Source of the DNA: a virus
Length of the DNA stretch: 64,000 nucleotides
Direction: 5' to 3' (one strand)
Virus record (IMG/VR): IMGVR_UViG_3300027754_004232
Coordinates: 1 to 64,000 of that record
A program made the translations under genes and the position numbers. A model generated the notes under the pieces. It was not told where the DNA came from, searched no databases, and saw only the letters and a program-made list of their open reading frames with translations. Positions 1 to 39,925 of this stretch are shown one piece after another. Each line of letters begins with the position of its first letter. Position 1 is the first letter of the stretch.

Positions 1-459
1 CAACGAAGGCGTAGGATTTACATTTTGGGGGTCCGTGATGGAATCCCCGCCAATAGCGATATACTCCAGTTTGGCCCTCGTAGTACTAGAACCTGTCAAC
101 AAAGCGTGGAACTTGTCAAAAAAAGCTTTGAATGGAATTTTAAAGCGAGCATGTGGTTCAATGAAACCTTTGCCTACTTTACTCGCCAAAGAAGTGACCA
201 ATTTGATGAATGCGGAGTCTCATCAACCTTAACAAAAAGAGATTATAAATCATTTACAGACCTAGTAGTCTCTAATGGTAATATACGCAGAGTAACGCCC
301 ACAGAGAGGCTTCGCCTCATGGGTTTTCATGATCATTGGCATATTGAAAATGCTTCAAATACTGATAAGTTTAAATACAATGGTATGCATGTGCCTTCAG
401 TTCAGTACATAGCAAGATGTTTAAGGGAGTATCACAAATGTTTGAGTTCTCAAAAATAG
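1..459 (+). CDS. DNA (cytosine-5)-methyltransferase, C-terminal part (5' truncated by the window)
   Basis: Frame 1 is open from base 1: QRRRRIYILG (motif VIII), TRD-like STLTKRDYK, RRVTPTERLRLMGF (motif IX), atypical motif X KFKYNGMHVP. Confidence 0.85.
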   Translation, partial: QRRRRIYILGVRDGIPANSDILQFGPRSTRTCQQSVELVKKSFEWNFKASMWFNETFAYFTRQRSDQFDECGVSSTLTKRDYKSFTDLVVSNGNIRRVTPTERLRLMGFHDHWHIENASNTDKFKYNGMHVPSVQYIARCLREYHKCLSSQK

Positions 460-1070
460 CAGAAAAGTTTGACGAACACTTGTCTGGACAATTATATTGG
501 CATAGCAATTTTGTTAATCATTTCTTGCCTGAGATTGCATCTGTATTTATGGCAGAAGAAACAAATGTGTATGATTTTGGTGCATCAACAGGTAATGTTG
601 AATTGGCTTTATCAAGTATGATTAAGTCGAGGAACATAGACTTTATACCTGTGGAAAAATGTAAAGAAATGGCAGAAAGATATAAGGGGGAAAGCGAAGT
701 GGTTGTTGATGACTTTCTAAATATATACATGGAAGAGTTTTCATTTGCCACATGCGTTTTATCTTTATGTTTTGTCCACCCATCAAAAAGAGAAATGTTT
801 ATTGATTCTTTAAAAAATAATTGTATGGTTGGAGGTGCTTTTGTAATACTAGAGAAAATGAAATCTAAGGGTGGATATCTAGGCACAGCTTTAAATAGAG
901 TTACATGGCGTAACAAGATTGAAAATGGCGAATCTGTAAAAATGGTAGTCAATAAAGAACTTTCTTTAAGTGGAGTTCAATACCCTCTGAGCGAAAAAGA
1001 ACTTGAAGGATTTGAGTTAATATGGGCGTATGGTGATTTTCGTGCTTACATTTGGCTAAAGGAGTTTTAA
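438..1070 (+). CDS. CmoA-like (carboxy-SAM synthase family) class I SAM-binding protein
   Basis: FEFSKIAEKFDEH start, VYDFGASTG SAM motif, GGAFVILEK and KIENGES..NKELSL follow the CmoA layout; overlaps the MTase stop; AAGGGAG RBS upstream. Confidence 0.75.
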   Translation: MFEFSKIAEKFDEHLSGQLYWHSNFVNHFLPEIASVFMAEETNVYDFGASTGNVELALSSMIKSRNIDFIPVEKCKEMAERYKGESEVVVDDFLNIYMEEFSFATCVLSLCFVHPSKREMFIDSLKNNCMVGGAFVILEKMKSKGGYLGTALNRVTWRNKIENGESVKMVVNKELSLSGVQYPLSEKELEGFELIWAYGDFRAYIWLKEF

Positions 1071-2320: not shown

Positions 2321-2930
2321 GATCATGAAGCGTATTGAAAGTGGGAATAGTTTGGCAGATAAGGTTGCCAATTATCTAAACTTTAGATTTAAATACAAAT
2401 TTGAAAAAGCTTCTATTGAAGAAGATAAGAAGTTGATGATTGATTATAAATGCAGCAAAAGCAATAAAACTGCACAAATGAAATGTCGTGAAAACAAATC
2501 AGACATCATTTACGAAGCAAAAAGATTCTATTCTACAAGCGGTTGTTTTTATGAAGAGGCAAATGGTAGAGATGTGAGAACAGAAGCAACCCTATACATA
2601 TGTTTGTCAGCAGATAAAAAACAAATAATAGTTGCAGAAACAGAAGCAATTAAAAAAATAGTTCAAAAAGAAATGCAGAAATTAGAAATAACATTAGATC
2701 AAGTAAAACAATATGAGCAAGAATGTGCATCTACTAGGAATAAAACAAAAAAATTAGCTTCAAATAAATCTAGAATTGAAGTATGGTTTAAGGTTGATGA
2801 AGGTATAGATTCAAGACATTACAGTAAACTTCTTGTCTTTATACCTTATTCAGCCATATTTGAATCTGTCGTAATTGATTTGAGAAACAACGAAAATATT
2901 GAAGATGAAAGGACTTGGAAAAATGGATAA
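2307..2930 (+). CDS. Hypothetical protein, possible PD-(D/E)XK-like nuclease
   Basis: ED..LMIDY...AQMK pattern; function call is weak. Confidence 0.4.
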   Translation: MKTDEIMKRIESGNSLADKVANYLNFRFKYKFEKASIEEDKKLMIDYKCSKSNKTAQMKCRENKSDIIYEAKRFYSTSGCFYEEANGRDVRTEATLYICLSADKKQIIVAETEAIKKIVQKEMQKLEITLDQVKQYEQECASTRNKTKKLASNKSRIEVWFKVDEGIDSRHYSKLLVFIPYSAIFESVVIDLRNNENIEDERTWKNG

Positions 2931-3519
2931 TGAAATTATGTTTAATCAAAGAATACCTAGTTTGCTTGTTGTTGACAACTTTTACAAAGATCCAGATTCT
3001 ATAGTTGGAAAAACAGCAGACTTTAAATTTAAAGAGGAAAACAAGTTCTATAAAGGAAAAAGAACAACTCAATGTTTATTGCCTTATGTAAAAGAAGAAT
3101 TTGAAAAGTTATTGCAAGTAGAGATAGTAGATTGGTTAAATCAACCAATGAATGGCGTTTTTCAAATAACATCTGGAAATGACCCACTAGTATGGCATAG
3201 TGACTCACAAGACTATGCAGCAGCAATATACTTAACGAAAGATGGACCAACTAATGCTGGAACATCATTTTGGAAAGATAAAAAATATGGTTGCAGAAGA
3301 CCGCCAAGTCACCCATTAGAAAACAGAACAGATATAACAGAATCAGAAATATACACGCAGCATAGCCTATTAAATGAAGATAGTTGGGAGTTGGTAGATA
3401 GAGTTGGATCTGTATATAACAGGCTAGTTCTTTGGGATGGTAAAATGATTCATTCTGCTACTATGTATGGCGAATTTCCTAGATTGGTTCATCTATTCTT
3501 TTTTAATGTGAAAAAATAA
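2923..3519 (+). CDS. 2OG-Fe(II) oxygenase (DUF6445-like)
   Basis: VVDNFY.DPD, HxD motif WHSD, IYL...GTSFW, YNRLVLWDG..IHSA, terminal R. Confidence 0.8.
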   Translation: MDNEIMFNQRIPSLLVVDNFYKDPDSIVGKTADFKFKEENKFYKGKRTTQCLLPYVKEEFEKLLQVEIVDWLNQPMNGVFQITSGNDPLVWHSDSQDYAAAIYLTKDGPTNAGTSFWKDKKYGCRRPPSHPLENRTDITESEIYTQHSLLNEDSWELVDRVGSVYNRLVLWDGKMIHSATMYGEFPRLVHLFFFNVKK

Positions 3520-4769
3520 TGCCATACTTTTCTATAGTCACACCAACAAACAATACTCAGTTTCTTGCTCGACTTTCTCGATCTATAGCCAAGCAAACAT
3601 TCAAAGATTTTGAGTGGGTTATTGTTCCAAATGGTAACGCCAATATTGATATTGAATCATTGGCTTTTAATCCAAGAGTTGTAGAATCAAAAAAACCAGA
3701 TTCAAAATTAATTGGTCTATTTAAAAAAGAAGGATGCATGGCATCCAATGGGATTGTAGTTGTAGAAGTTGATCATGATGATGAACTTACAGAAGATTGC
3801 TTGCAGGAATTATACAATGAATTTAATTCAGATCAAACACTTGATTTTGCATATTCAAATTGTGCAGAAATAAACCCTGATGGAAAACCATTTGTTTACT
3901 CTAACTATTTTGGTTGGAGAAATAGACCATTTAAACATCAAGAAAAAAATCTTTTAGAACTAATATCATTTGATTCAACTCCAGCATCTTTTTCTAAAAT
4001 TTGGTTTTCTCCAAATCATGTTCGTGCATGGAAAAAATCATTTTATGAAAAAATTGGTGGACATAATGAAGAAATGGAAGTTCTAGATGATCATGACATT
4101 CTTTGCAAAACATACATACAAGGTAAAGTTAAGCATATAGATAAGTGTTTGTACATTTATTATAAGCATAAAAACAATACTTGTTATGGCGAGAAGAATG
4201 CTTTCATTCAAGAAGAAACATTAAACATTCATGATAAGTATATTTATGCATTGGTTGAGAAATGGTGTGACCTTAATGGTTTGCTTAAGATAGACCTTTG
4301 TGGGGGTTTCAATTCTCCAGAGGGGTATAAGTCAATAGACATGCAGAACGCAGAAATTATACATGATTTAAACGATCCTTGGCCTTTTAAAGATGGTGAA
4401 GTGGGATTGATAAGGGCACATGATGCTCTTGAACATTTAAAAGACCCAATTCATGTGATGAAAGAAGCGTATAGGTGCTTATGTCCAATGGGTTGGTTTT
4501 TGACACAAACCCCATCAACAGATGGTCGAGGTGCTTTTCAAGACCCAACACATATAGCATTTTGGAACAGTAACAGTTTCTGGTACTACACAAAACAAGA
4601 ACAGGCAAAATATATTGGTACGCCAGTAAGATTTCAAGGAAATAGAATCAAGAACTTTTATCCAAGTGAATGGCACAAGACACACAACATTCTTTATGTA
4701 AAAGCAGATTTAATAAGACTTCCAGATAAGGATTCAAATATAAGAGTTCCTGGAGAAGTTGTGATATGA
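3519..4769 (+). CDS. GT2 glycosyltransferase fused to a class I methyltransferase-like domain
   Basis: FSIVTPT, QTFKDFEWVIV, DHDD; C-terminal IDLCGG, HDALEHL, AFQDPTH. Confidence 0.8.
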   Translation: MPYFSIVTPTNNTQFLARLSRSIAKQTFKDFEWVIVPNGNANIDIESLAFNPRVVESKKPDSKLIGLFKKEGCMASNGIVVVEVDHDDELTEDCLQELYNEFNSDQTLDFAYSNCAEINPDGKPFVYSNYFGWRNRPFKHQEKNLLELISFDSTPASFSKIWFSPNHVRAWKKSFYEKIGGHNEEMEVLDDHDILCKTYIQGKVKHIDKCLYIYYKHKNNTCYGEKNAFIQEETLNIHDKYIYALVEKWCDLNGLLKIDLCGGFNSPEGYKSIDMQNAEIIHDLNDPWPFKDGEVGLIRAHDALEHLKDPIHVMKEAYRCLCPMGWFLTQTPSTDGRGAFQDPTHIAFWNSNSFWYYTKQEQAKYIGTPVRFQGNRIKNFYPSEWHKTHNILYVKADLIRLPDKDSNIRVPGEVVI

Positions 4770-35448: not shown

Positions 35449-35476
35449 TTAATTGAAAAAAATTTAAGGATTGAAC

Positions 35477-37393
35477 ATGAATTGGATACCATTGCATTGT
35501 CATACTCATTATAGTTTATTGGATGGATTAAGTAAGCCAGATCTTTTAGCAAAAAGATGCAAAGAGCTTGGATATACTTCATGTGCTATAACTGATCATG
35601 GAACTATATCTGGTGCTATTTCTTTTTCTAAAGCTTGTATTTCACAAGGTATAAAGCCAATTATTGGTTGTGAATTTTATATTTGTAAAAAACCAGCGAT
35701 AGAACAAAATAAAGAAAACTCAAGTTTGACCCATCTATGCGTTATTGCTAAGAATTTAAATGGATGGAAAAACTTAATTAATCTATCTTCTTTAGCCAAT
35801 TCTTTAGATTATTTTTATTATAAACCAAGATTAAACTTAAATGACTTTAAAGGAGTTTGCGGTGATCTAATTGCTTTCTCTGGTCACCCAGGAACCGATT
35901 TGGCAAACTGCTTATTTGAGGATTATAAAGAAGCATACAAAAGAACCGATTATGATGAAATAAAAGAAATGCTTAAGCCTAATTGGTTGAATGAAGCTGG
36001 AAACATTTGTTCGGAGTATACAGACATATTTGGGGCAGACAATTTTTTTGTAGAAATACAATTGTTTGATAGTTCTAATTTAGTTGCATCAAAAGTTATT
36101 GCGGAATGCTTGAGAGAACTTTGTGCTAAAACTGGAATTAAAAAAATAGCAACTCCAGATGTTCATTATGTTATGCCAGAAGATGCCCCTGATCAAAGGG
36201 TTTTGTTGTGTTCTTCAATGGAAACAACTTTAAAAAATGTAAATAGCAAATTAGAAAATAACGAAGAATTTGGACTTTCCGTATTCTTTAAATCAAATAG
36301 ATACTATCTTCCAACAATTGAAGAGATATCTAGCTTTCATGAAGAAGATGAAATAAGTAATTGCTGTTTAATTGATAGTTTATGTGAAAGTTATTCACTT
36401 ATAAAACAACCAGCCATACCAAACTTTGCTTGTCCAGATGGGCTTTCTCAGATCCTTTATTTGAGGAAGTTATGCAGAGATGGGTGGAATAGGCGTTTTT
36501 CTGAAATAAAGCCAAAAACAGATGAATACAAGGAATATACAGAGAGAATAAAGCATGAGCTTGAAGTTATAGATACTTCGGGTTTAGCTGGATACTTTTT
36601 AATTGTGCAGGACTATTGCAATTGGGCAAAGTCTAAGGGTTGGATTATGGGTAGAGGTAGGGGTTCTGGTGCTGGATGCATGATATCCTACCTTTTAGGA
36701 ATAACAGAAGTAGATCCAATTAAACATTCTCTTATATTTGAAAGATTTTATAATGCAGGAAGAAACTCTGCTGGTCGTATAAGTTTGCCAGATATTGACT
36801 GTGACTTTCCAATTACAAAGCGTGATAAGGTAATAGAATATATAAAGCAAAAGTATGGAAGTACCAATGTTTGTCAAATGATAACATTTAGTCGTATGCA
36901 GGGTCGTGGATCACTCAAAGATGTTCTTAGAGTTCACGGCTTTTCTTTTGAGGAAAGCAACAATGTAACAAAATATATTCCAGATGAATCAGAGATATCT
37001 GAACAGCTACAAGATATGAAAGATGAAGATGGAGATTCTTCAATAATAAGGTGGGCGTTAGAGAATATTCCTGATAGATTATCTGAGTATTGCAAGATTG
37101 AAAAGGATGGAACTTACTCTGGAAGATTAGCAAAGGAATTTGCACAAGCAATAAGATTAGAAGGAACAAAAAGGAGTCAAGGTAAACATGCTGCTGGTAT
37201 AGTTATTAGCAATATTCCATTATCAGAAGTATGCCCAATGACATTTGATAAAAAAACAAAACAAATGATAGCTGGTCTGGAAATGTCAGATTTAGAATCA
37301 ATTGGTATGGTTAAGTTTGACATACTTGGAGTTGCAGTTTTAGATAAGATAATGGGTTGTATAAATATTTTAAAGGGGAAACCAAATGAATGA
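35477..37393 (+). CDS. dnaE: DNA polymerase III alpha, N-terminal half (PHP, palm, thumb)
   Basis: LHCHTHYSLLDG, TDHG, GCE, DVHY, GRGSGAG, FERFYN, PDIDCD, HAAG, ends just after KFDILG. Confidence 0.92.
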   Translation: MNWIPLHCHTHYSLLDGLSKPDLLAKRCKELGYTSCAITDHGTISGAISFSKACISQGIKPIIGCEFYICKKPAIEQNKENSSLTHLCVIAKNLNGWKNLINLSSLANSLDYFYYKPRLNLNDFKGVCGDLIAFSGHPGTDLANCLFEDYKEAYKRTDYDEIKEMLKPNWLNEAGNICSEYTDIFGADNFFVEIQLFDSSNLVASKVIAECLRELCAKTGIKKIATPDVHYVMPEDAPDQRVLLCSSMETTLKNVNSKLENNEEFGLSVFFKSNRYYLPTIEEISSFHEEDEISNCCLIDSLCESYSLIKQPAIPNFACPDGLSQILYLRKLCRDGWNRRFSEIKPKTDEYKEYTERIKHELEVIDTSGLAGYFLIVQDYCNWAKSKGWIMGRGRGSGAGCMISYLLGITEVDPIKHSLIFERFYNAGRNSAGRISLPDIDCDFPITKRDKVIEYIKQKYGSTNVCQMITFSRMQGRGSLKDVLRVHGFSFEESNNVTKYIPDESEISEQLQDMKDEDGDSSIIRWALENIPDRLSEYCKIEKDGTYSGRLAKEFAQAIRLEGTKRSQGKHAAGIVISNIPLSEVCPMTFDKKTKQMIAGLEMSDLESIGMVKFDILGVAVLDKIMGCINILKGKPNE

Positions 37394-38299: not shown

Positions 38300-39925
38300 A
38301 TGACAAAAACATACAAGTTTTCATGCGGTTGTAGTTTTCCAATAATTGGAGATCCTTTAACCAAAAATTCTTTGCCTCTAATGGAAGTAGACCCAACCAA
38401 TCTACCTTCTTGCGATATTGCTTGGGATATATTTTCTAGAGGCGATACAAAAGGAATTTTTCAATTAGAGTCAGATCTTGGAAAACAGTGGTCTAAGAAA
38501 TTAAGACCAAAGACTGTTGAACATTTAACTGCTCTTGGAGCACTGATAAGGCCAGGAGCTTTGCGTTCTGTTGACGATAAGGGCGTTAGTATGACCGCAC
38601 ATTATTGTCGTATTGTAAATGGAGAAGAACAGATTTCATCTTATCATCCTATTGTTGATGAAGCACTTAAATCAACATACGGATCGCTTGTTTTCCAAGA
38701 ACAGGCAATGGAACTTTCTAGGGTTATCGCTGGATTCACTTTACAAGAGGCAGATATGCTTCGTAAAGCAATGGGAAAGAAATCATCTAGCGAAATGGCA
38801 AAATGTAAAAAGATGTTTATTGAGGGTGCTAAAAAAATAGAGGTTGTTTCAGAAGATCAAGCCGAAGAAATATTTGGATGGATTGAACAGAGTCAAAAAT
38901 ATTCCTTTAATCGCAGTCACAGTTGTTGTTATGGTTTAATTGGATATGATACCGCTTATTTAAAGAGTCACTTTCCAGTTCAATTCTTTACTAGCTGGCT
39001 TTATTTTGCTAAAGACAAGGCAGATAGCCAACTTGAAATATCAGATCTAATTGAAGATGCAAAAAAATTTAACATAATTGTTGAGCCTCCAGATTTAATG
39101 ATGCTAAATAGCAATTTCTATACTGATGGAATATCAATTTGGTTTGGTATTACTGATGTAAAAGGAATTGGCCAATCTCAATTTGAAAAAATTAAGCTCG
39201 CTATAAATAATTATGGCAAAAGCATAGATTCTTGGGAAGAATTTGTTGTTAAATGTTCTGATGAAATGCCAAAATCAAGTATTGAAAAATTAATTGCTGT
39301 TAATGGACTAAGAAAATTTGGAAGCAAAAGGAAGGTTCTTCTTGCAGAATTTAATGCTTGGTGTGAATTAACAGATAAAGAAAGAGAATGGATAAAAGCC
39401 AATGCTGAAATCACTAACATATCAGATATGATTTTAAACTCAGCAAACACAAAAAAAGAAGGTGGTTGTTGTTCCTCAGTCAAAAGAGTTGAGGTTTTAA
39501 AAAGCATTGCCTCTATGATTAAAAATCCTCCTTCTCCATTAATAGATATTCCAAGTTGGGTTTGTTGGATTGAAAAGGACTCTTTAGGGATTTCTTTAAC
39601 ATATAATGCTACAGATTCCTGCGATACAAGTAGTTCAAATACTACATGCAAAGAATACTTAGATGGAAAGAATGGTTATATGGTTTTTGGTGTTGAAGTA
39701 AGAAGGTCTAAAGAAGTACTTACAAAAGCTGGAAAAACACCGGGATCTAGAATGGCATTTTTATCAATATCTGATGCTACTGGAAAAATAGATGATGTTA
39801 TCTGTTTTCCAAACTCGTACAAAGATTTTGCTTCTTTGTTAAAAGAGGGTAATACAGTCTTGATTCAAGGTGAACGAGACAAAAAAAGTGACTCTCTTTT
39901 AGTTAAAACTGTTGTTCAAATTTAG
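38300..39925 (+). CDS. dnaE: DNA polymerase III alpha, C-terminal half (fingers, HhH, OB)
   Basis: GIFQLES, ALIRPG, TYGSLVFQEQ, ADMLRKAMGKK, YSFNRSH, VKGIG, MAFLSISDATG. Confidence 0.92.
   Translation: MTKTYKFSCGCSFPIIGDPLTKNSLPLMEVDPTNLPSCDIAWDIFSRGDTKGIFQLESDLGKQWSKKLRPKTVEHLTALGALIRPGALRSVDDKGVSMTAHYCRIVNGEEQISSYHPIVDEALKSTYGSLVFQEQAMELSRVIAGFTLQEADMLRKAMGKKSSSEMAKCKKMFIEGAKKIEVVSEDQAEEIFGWIEQSQKYSFNRSHSCCYGLIGYDTAYLKSHFPVQFFTSWLYFAKDKADSQLEISDLIEDAKKFNIIVEPPDLMMLNSNFYTDGISIWFGITDVKGIGQSQFEKIKLAINNYGKSIDSWEEFVVKCSDEMPKSSIEKLIAVNGLRKFGSKRKVLLAEFNAWCELTDKEREWIKANAEITNISDMILNSANTKKEGGCCSSVKRVEVLKSIASMIKNPPSPLIDIPSWVCWIEKDSLGISLTYNATDSCDTSSSNTTCKEYLDGKNGYMVFGVEVRRSKEVLTKAGKTPGSRMAFLSISDATGKIDDVICFPNSYKDFASLLKEGNTVLIQGERDKKSDSLLVKTVVQI

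Follow-up and report, generated by a model that had tools for sequence, protein, structure and literature searches.

A two-gene cassette at the contig end

We analyzed the first 64 kb (positions 1 to 64,000, hereafter the window) of IMG/VR virus record IMGVR_UViG_3300027754_004232, a linear contig of 92,193 bp with an estimated completeness of 57% that stems from an uncultured, low-GC (about 31% guanine plus cytosine) tailed phage from a lake. Our focus is a two-gene cassette on the plus strand at the very start of the window, in which the 3' part of a gene for a C5-cytosine DNA methyltransferase homologue is followed by a gene for a homologue of CmoA, an enzyme that converts S-adenosylmethionine (SAM) to carboxy-SAM (Cx-SAM). 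Frame +1 is open from nucleotide 1 to a TAG stop codon at 457-459 and holds 152 codons of the transferase (1-459; PF00145, E-value 1.7e-7; phrog_116, E-value 3.8e-13). Since the window starts at base 1 of the contig, the gene is interrupted by the contig end rather than in the phage. The CmoA-like gene (438-1070, TAA stop codon at 1068-1070) encodes 210 amino acids. Its open reading frame (ORF) offers two candidate ATG codons at 417 and 438, of which 438 is taken as the conserved start because relatives carry a stop codon just 5' of the equivalent ATG. A Shine-Dalgarno-like AAGGGAG (421-427) lies within the end of the transferase gene, 10 nt 5' of this ATG. As the initial annotation had pointed out, the transferase stop codon lies beyond the CmoA-like start; the two genes overlap by 22 nt (438-459), and the same overlap recurs in relatives, for example in locus L013 (5120-6022 and 6001-6633), which suggests translational coupling. 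The same locus was found on 21 related viral contigs, with 93-100% identity for the CmoA-like protein.

A transferase family with an altered motif X

The natural phage systems with which this cassette has to be compared, CmoA-CmoX-CmoY, were published in December 2025 (Yang et al., Nat Commun, PMC12783734). CmoX is a C5-cytosine methyltransferase homologue defined by an SPPC motif and Arg350; in the crystal structure (PDB 8YF3) Arg350 binds the carboxylate of Cx-SAM, and the enzyme is strictly Cx-SAM-specific (PMC12783734). The window fragment scores 31.5 bits against PF00145, above the gathering cut-off of 22, and matches the C-terminal half of a full-length 299-residue homologue (L004:577-1473) at 97% identity. 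The N-terminal motifs, which fall outside the window, were read from such full-length relatives: L004 carries FSGIGG, GFPC (with Cys71), ENV and QRRRR, so that motifs I, IV (Pro-Cys), VI and VIII are all present. At 91-97% identity, the full-length relatives read GFPCTDIS in motif IV and thus lack the SPPC of CmoX. A wider search returned 248 homologous proteins at E-values of at most 1e-5 with identities around 50%; the 120 matches listed have in common a motif IV of GFPC[Q/T]DIS and a motif X of x-N-G-M-[S/T/H]-V-P-V-V. We refer to these enzymes as the NGM family. Among the matches listed, Gly-Met follows the motif X Asn position in 114 of 121 sequences, and the position itself is Asn in 94 and Cys in 13 of 114. 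Across the NGM-family alignment Met is invariant and Gly is present in at least 90% of sequences.

In the window, motif X reads DKFKYNGMHVP, with Asn127 at 379-381, Gly at 382-384 and Met at 385-387 (core Asn-Gly-Met-His-Val-Pro, 379-396). Compared with the canonical Gly-Asn-(Ala/Ser)-Val, Asn is retained, the preceding Gly is replaced by Tyr, Ala/Ser-Val is replaced by Gly-Met, and a gap of 1-2 residues occurs upstream. The description of this motif as deviant, shortened and lacking the Gly before Asn is therefore borne out by both HMMER and hhalign. HMMER pairs Asn127 with the canonical Asn of M.HhaI (Asn304). An hhalign comparison with the 17 closest canonical GN-type enzymes (motif X GNAVAVPVIEWIG) gave a full-length match (probability 100, E-value 4e-57) that has no gap between motif X and the C-terminus and places Asn opposite Asn, Gly opposite Ala and Met opposite Val. 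Further, in HhaI, CmoX, the canonical enzymes and the NGM family alike, the Asn or Arg lies 10 residues from the conserved helix Ile-(Ala/Gly). When aligned with the CmoX family profile, hhalign instead sets Gly-Met opposite Gly-Arg350 at the cost of a 2-residue gap. Met129 as the counterpart of Asn304 and Arg350 was rejected, as the canonical hhalign alignment, the HMMER alignment with HhaI and the 10-residue spacing all favor Asn127. We thus prefer Asn127 as the likely counterpart of both HhaI Asn304 and CmoX Arg350 and regard the CmoX-profile alignment as the weaker one. Neither Asn127 nor, in the alternative alignment, Met129 is basic, and judged by its motifs the transferase lies outside the published definition of CmoX.

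The transferable-group pocket of M.HhaI is lined by Gln82, Tyr254 and Asn304 (PMC3526304). The changes seen in the NGM family coincide with these positions. Directly after the catalytic Pro-Cys, at the HhaI Gln82 position, the window clade has Thr, and the family as a whole has Gln in 70 and Thr in 39 sequences. The target-recognition domain holds an invariant Lys226-Arg227-Asp228-Tyr229-Lys230 segment with a nearly invariant Thr223 before it. Counted from a conserved Thr-Leu dipeptide, Arg227 falls on what we take to be HhaI Tyr254, and the Asp-Tyr-Lys that follows it is an insertion relative to canonical relatives. An AlphaFold2 (AF2) model of the transferase had a predicted local distance difference test score (pLDDT) of 81 and was unreliable in residues 191-232.

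The CmoA-like protein

TIGR00740 (CmoA) was the top family match of the CmoA-like protein (E-value 6.7e-20, 71.8 bits) and stayed below its equivalog cut-off of 193.3 bits; phrog_4752 matched at an E-value of 5.6e-32. A profile of 65 family sequences compared with solved structures retrieved E. coli CmoA (4GEK) at an E-value of 3e-34. The AF2 model (438-1067) reached a pLDDT of 94.9 and adopts the CmoA-type class I methyltransferase fold, with 4GEK, 4IWN and 1IM8 as the top PDB matches (template modeling (TM) scores 0.85-0.87) and E. coli CmoA 4GEK as the best (TM 0.87). Of the E. coli residues considered, the SAM-site positions D62, G64, S66, D89, D117 and F137 together with Lys198 are retained, reading D, G, S, E, D, F and K in the window protein. 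Lys173, the counterpart of Lys198, is present in nearly all sequences compared. A tblastn search of cultured phages with the window CmoA missed Synechococcus phage S-B43, the phage of the published system, which was retrieved by using E. coli CmoA as query. Ranking next after CmoA, by structure and by profile, were the SAM-dependent enzymes CysG(N-16) and BelI (9FCx entries); a further match (8K5L, TM 0.69) is a protein from F. nucleatum that carries the name tRNA (cmo5U34)-methyltransferase.

Glutamate at the Arg199 position

In E. coli CmoA, Arg199 forms a salt bridge to the carboxylate of bound Cx-SAM (PMC3663124). The initial annotation had placed a glutamate at this position by eye, and the assignment holds. 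Glu174 (codon GAA, 957-959; within Lys173-Glu174-Leu-Ser-Leu, 954-968) pairs with Arg199 in four concordant alignments, comprising phmmer to 4GEK and 4IWN, MAFFT and the 65-sequence profile aligned with 4GEK (KELSL opposite KRSML), such that NKELSL stands opposite QKRSML and the arginine of the E. coli enzyme is missing from the CmoA-like protein. The annotation had gone on to propose that an acidic residue here points to a SAM analogue other than Cx-SAM. This proposal did not survive a look at the wider family. A search of 1.8 billion proteins supplied 161 representatives, among which the column holds Glu in 139 and Asp in 10; the sole Arg belongs to E. coli CmoA, which had itself been put into the alignment as a reference. 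SpCmoA, the enzyme of phage S-B43, has Glu188 opposite Arg199 with the preceding Lys aligned in both BLASTP and MAFFT, and this enzyme makes Cx-SAM from SAM and prephenate, its kcat being 2.33 per s compared with 0.23 per s for E. coli CmoA (PMC12783734). Glu also occupies the column in all 47 distinct CmoAs that adjoin an Arg350-type CmoX. Because the partner CmoX binds the Cx-SAM carboxylate via Arg350 and accepts only Cx-SAM, these Glu-bearing CmoAs would be expected to make Cx-SAM.

Arg199 is therefore not a defining feature in the phage branch, given that a Cx-SAM-making enzyme has Glu there, and from the alignments Glu199 is the normal state of phage CmoAs. A residue that SpCmoA and the CmoX-linked CmoAs have in common gives no pointer to a different SAM analogue. 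A coupled co-occurrence of the Arg-to-Glu change with the altered motif X, put forward as a check of the proposal, was likewise rejected: Glu199 CmoAs pair with both transferase types, and Glu199 is equally universal beside the Arg-type CmoX. The substitution may instead weaken product retention and speed up release, which would suit a high-flux enzyme and fits the higher kcat of SpCmoA.

Linkage of the NGM family to CmoA

A locus was counted as NGM when its transferase matched the family hidden Markov model (HMM) at an E-value below 1e-100. By this measure a CmoA homologue abuts or overlaps the transferase gene in about 62 of 64 viral loci, the loci without one being L140 and the truncated L169. 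CmoA is absent from all 14 more distant transferase loci of the same fetch, which matched the model mainly over the N-terminal half and have a motif X of the GN or another type. The transferase and CmoA (present in 16 of 17 transferase clades) are the only conserved neighbors; a third gene conserved with the pair, including a CmoB-like or other acceptor enzyme, was sought across the 17 clades and not found. Both gene orders occur, with CmoA upstream in some lineages and downstream in others, and even for the divergent CmoAs that partner NGM transferases the best match is still CmoA.

A separate family-profile fetch yielded 80 viral loci, about 60 of which have a CmoX-type enzyme (SPPC, and ER.GR.VPP with Arg350) directly upstream of CmoA. 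In a maximum-likelihood tree of 54 CmoAs, two deep clans were resolved. The first groups 16 NGM-partnered CmoAs with E. coli CmoA and the assayed SpCmoA. The second, here called the KELSL clan, comprises the window protein with 8 other NGM-partnered and 22 CmoX-partnered CmoAs, which are interleaved. The CmoAs of the roughly 60 CmoX loci are of the KELSL clan, and a KELSL-clan CmoA beside an Arg350/SPPC CmoX is also found in Moraxella phage Mcat8. Each clan thus serves both NGM transferases and CmoX, and partner type switches at least 2-3 times on the tree. Judging from this tree, the CmoA-NGM pairing was probably re-formed independently.

Some NGM members stand without CmoA. Vibrio phages S4-7, 1.052.A and 1.233.A encode an NGM transferase and have no CmoA anywhere in the record, and an NGM locus in a Colwellia metagenome-assembled genome (MAG) lacks a CmoA neighbor although the same genome has a bona fide cmoA scoring 340 bits. 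All exceptions of known host have Vibrio, Enterovibrio or Colwellia as that host. Vibrios possess their own cmoA and cmoB. For CmoX, host CmoA is sufficient in E. coli (PMC12783734). The CmoA-less exceptions would fit a supply of the CmoA product by the host.

Outside viruses the NGM family is almost absent: in 185,579 species genomes, only 2 full-length members were present among the best 80 of 105 confirmed matches, and one of these two loci is a short phage-like contig with CmoA downstream. The family therefore appears to be nearly phage-only.

Two further observations concern the transferases at these loci. Those of the Vibrio and Enterovibrio phages and the Colwellia MAG have a C-terminal extension of about 50-60 residues (..DGHYR..DDSD..SS...FS...L...DY). 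It occurs in L186:3004-4044, L187:3001-4068, L188:3001-4026 and L190:5890-7047, none of which has a CmoA neighbor, and is absent from the CmoA-linked NGM members. Separately, L137:5713-6729 and L141:6863-7921 encode a third type of C5-methyltransferase beside CmoA and an NGM transferase; in this third type motif IV is GVPC or GFPC and motif X reads QYERCSGIP, hence neither Asn nor Arg. Loci of this kind have two different transferases around one CmoA.

Comparison with known systems

The kind of system considered here, CmoA plus a cytosine carboxymethyl transferase, is already published. As in S-B43, a phage CmoA homologue with Glu at the E. coli Arg199 column adjoins a C5-cytosine methyltransferase homologue, and the predicted logic is the same: Cx-SAM would be made and its carboxymethyl group then placed on cytosine C5. 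The transferase differs from the S-B43 CmoX in having GFPC rather than SPPC, Asn rather than Arg350 and 299 rather than 372 residues, and the window CmoA belongs to the deep clan that does not include SpCmoA. A CmoY-type (Asn-synthase-like) amide ligase and a second C5-methyltransferase were sought in the 92-kb contig and not found; as no such ligase is present there, no glycine amide would be expected.

The engineered enzyme M.MpeI N374K resembles the proposed system in that a C5-methyltransferase scaffold uses CmoA-made Cx-SAM to write 5-carboxymethylcytosine (5cxmC), as cited in PMC12783734 and PMC13288465. It gains this function by a Lys at the motif X Asn, whereas the window transferase keeps the Asn and has changed neighbors, with Tyr for Gly before it and Gly-Met for Ala/Ser-Val after it. 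E. coli CmoA (4GEK, 4IWN, 1IM8) is the best match of the CmoA-like protein in sequence, profile and fold (26% identity), and its SAM-binding residues and Lys198 are kept. In contrast to the E. coli CmoA/CmoB pathway for uridine 5-oxyacetic acid (cmo5U) in tRNA, the window protein has Glu for Arg199, His for Tyr39 and Val for Asn132, has no CmoB partner and would serve DNA rather than tRNA as the presumed acceptor. With M.HhaI and M.HaeIII the transferase has in common the fold, motifs I, IV, VI and VIII, the catalytic Pro-Cys and the motif X Asn; it differs from them by the loss of the Gly before Asn, the near-invariant Gly-Met, the KRDYK segment and, in its clade, Thr in place of Gln82. Unlike these enzymes, the NGM family is nearly confined to phages and nearly always CmoA-linked. 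In the literature searched, we found no description of the NGM transferase lineage and its cofactor handling.

Proposed function and alternatives

From the homology, motifs, gene coupling and co-occurrence established directly above, we infer that the NGM family constitutes a second, arginine-independent lineage of DNA cytosine carboxymethyltransferases and that the pair makes and uses Cx-SAM, a reading to which we assign a probability of roughly 0.55. The predicted activities, product and residue roles would be as follows. The CmoA homologue would convert SAM to Cx-SAM with prephenate as the carboxyl donor. The co-translated transferase would then add its catalytic Cys to C6 of cytosines in phage DNA and transfer the carboxymethyl group to C5, yielding 5cxmC. 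As no ligase is present, 5cxmC itself would be the end product, and DNA modified in this way would be protected from host nucleases. Because Asn is kept where CmoX has Arg350, the carboxylate would have to be held otherwise; candidates are the rewired Asn-Gly-Met segment and the basic Lys-Arg-Asp-Tyr-Lys segment at the HhaI Tyr254 position. The central argument comes from the linkage, which is specific, repeatedly re-formed and host-complementary and so argues for a dependence of the NGM family on the product of CmoA. Most simply, this product would be Cx-SAM.

A number of points weigh against this assignment. The retained Asn is the residue typically seen in enzymes that transfer methyl. A basic residue at the motif X Asn position was needed in the two scaffolds for which tests exist: SpCmoX R350N is inactive (PMC12783734), and M.MpeI N374K gained carboxymethyl transfer (as cited in PMC12783734). 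The alignment of motif X is not unique, given the version obtained with the CmoX profile beside the one obtained with canonical methyltransferases, and the pLDDT of the AF2 model drops below 50 exactly in the target-recognition segment 209-232. In fold and sequence, the transferase is nearer to HhaI and HaeIII, with CmoX 8YF3 ranking 15th. The CmoA-like protein scores far under the NCBIfam equivalog cut-off (71.8 compared with 193.3 bits) and has His for E. coli Tyr39 and Val for Asn132. Lastly, the activities of the NGM family and of the KELSL clan are predictions drawn from homology.

In one alternative, the transferase would be an ordinary SAM-dependent enzyme writing 5-methylcytosine (5mC) and the CmoA homologue would have a separate job, such as depleting SAM in the host or supplying a different acceptor, with the two genes merely traveling together. 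Asn at the HhaI Asn304 position, HhaI and HaeIII as the nearest solved structures and a PF00145 score above cut-off are all what such an enzyme would present, and SAM depletion by CmoA is raised as a possibility in the Discussion of PMC12783734. The gene coupling argues otherwise, since a SAM-consuming CmoA would counteract a SAM-dependent methyltransferase translated together with it. Mere co-travel also sits poorly with a link that is family-specific (about 62 of 64 NGM loci compared with none of the 14 distant ones) and that has arisen anew in either gene order and with partners from two CmoA clans. The exceptions fall in hosts with their own cmoA, which was found in Colwellia and is general knowledge for vibrios, and no CmoB-like or other acceptor enzyme that might use the product is conserved nearby in the 17 clades. 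We consider an ordinary methylase a tentative alternative, clearly less probable than carboxymethyl transfer.

In another alternative, the transferase would accept SAM as well as Cx-SAM and write 5mC alongside 5cxmC, with CmoA tilting the balance towards carboxymethyl. Methyl transfer is compatible with the retained Asn, and carboxymethyl transfer with the obligate CmoA linkage; CmoB reportedly uses either donor but prefers Cx-SAM (PMC10491745). SpCmoX, by contrast, is strictly Cx-SAM-specific (PMC12783734), and we regard dual donor use as unlikely.

Least probable of all is that the Glu-bearing CmoA makes a SAM derivative other than Cx-SAM from which the transferase adds a new alkyl group: the KELSL clan lies under the CmoA equivalog cut-off, Tyr39 and Asn132 are replaced by His and Val in the window clade, and the transferase pocket residues are unlike both known types, but the same Glu is found in the Cx-SAM synthase SpCmoA and in all 47 CmoX-paired CmoAs, the partner CmoX binds the Cx-SAM carboxylate through Arg350 in the crystal structure (PMC12783734), NGM- and CmoX-partnered CmoAs are interleaved on the tree, and no extra biosynthetic gene is conserved nearby. 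It would be just as surprising if the CmoA-like enzyme (Glu199, His39, Val132) or the NGM transferase departed in some other manner from Cx-SAM/5cxmC chemistry to give an undescribed base. Of the original suggestion, the candidate cytosine alkylation pair with a deviant transferase thus stands, and the undescribed modified base is not supported.

Significance

It was only in December 2025 that natural DNA carboxymethylation became known, and the published bioinformatic definition covers a single enzyme family (SPPC plus Arg350). If the NGM family uses Cx-SAM, the modification would have arisen at least twice on the C5-methyltransferase scaffold and the published census of 5,615 CmoX (PMC12783734) would understate how widespread it is among lake and marine phages. 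The cofactor could then be selected without a basic motif X residue, which would be relevant to engineering methyltransferases for DNA labelling. If the product is plain 5mC, something else, such as cofactor warfare, has to account for the near-obligate CmoA linkage. For annotation, E. coli Arg199 is not usable as a marker of Cx-SAM synthases in phages.

Neighboring genes and other features of the contig

An ORF of 82 amino acids with four CxxC pairs (zinc-ribbon-like) follows the cassette at 1072-1320, its start codon lying 2 nt past the CmoA stop (TAAAATG). It is kept in close relatives (L013:6635-6880) and not in the wider family. About 2 kb downstream lie a gene for a DUF6445 protein (phrog_1644, 2899-3519) and, at 3519-4769, one whose product joins a family 2 (GT2) glycosyltransferase to a class I methyltransferase domain. 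In relatives, an ORF on the 5' side of the pair (L013:3627-4373) encodes a protein whose resemblance to 2-oxoglutarate/Fe(II) (2OG-Fe(II)) oxygenases was noted by eye only. No link was seen between the cassette and the DUF6445, GT2-methyltransferase or oxygenase-like ORFs. Alternative-frame and antisense ORFs occur within the transferase gene in all 17 clades (window 2-232 on the plus and 1-201 on the minus strand; L135:6254-6670) and seem to be shadows of the conserved coding sequence, not genes.

The N-terminal half of the transferase was sought at the opposite end of the contig and not found there. Circular permutation, which would have placed the front half at that end, was ruled out: the last ~120 nt (contig 92074-92193, L002) form a GTxGGx repeat encoding a Gly/Val-rich stretch, and this repeat is the probable cause of the assembly break at that end. 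Among the other proteins encoded by the phage are a ribonucleotide reductase, a DnaB-like helicase, several glycosyltransferases, a giant tape measure protein and a split DnaE-type polymerase. The latter consists of two ORFs about 900 nt apart, at 35471-37393 and 38300-39925, which cover positions 41-615 and 634-1077 of phrog_405, respectively.

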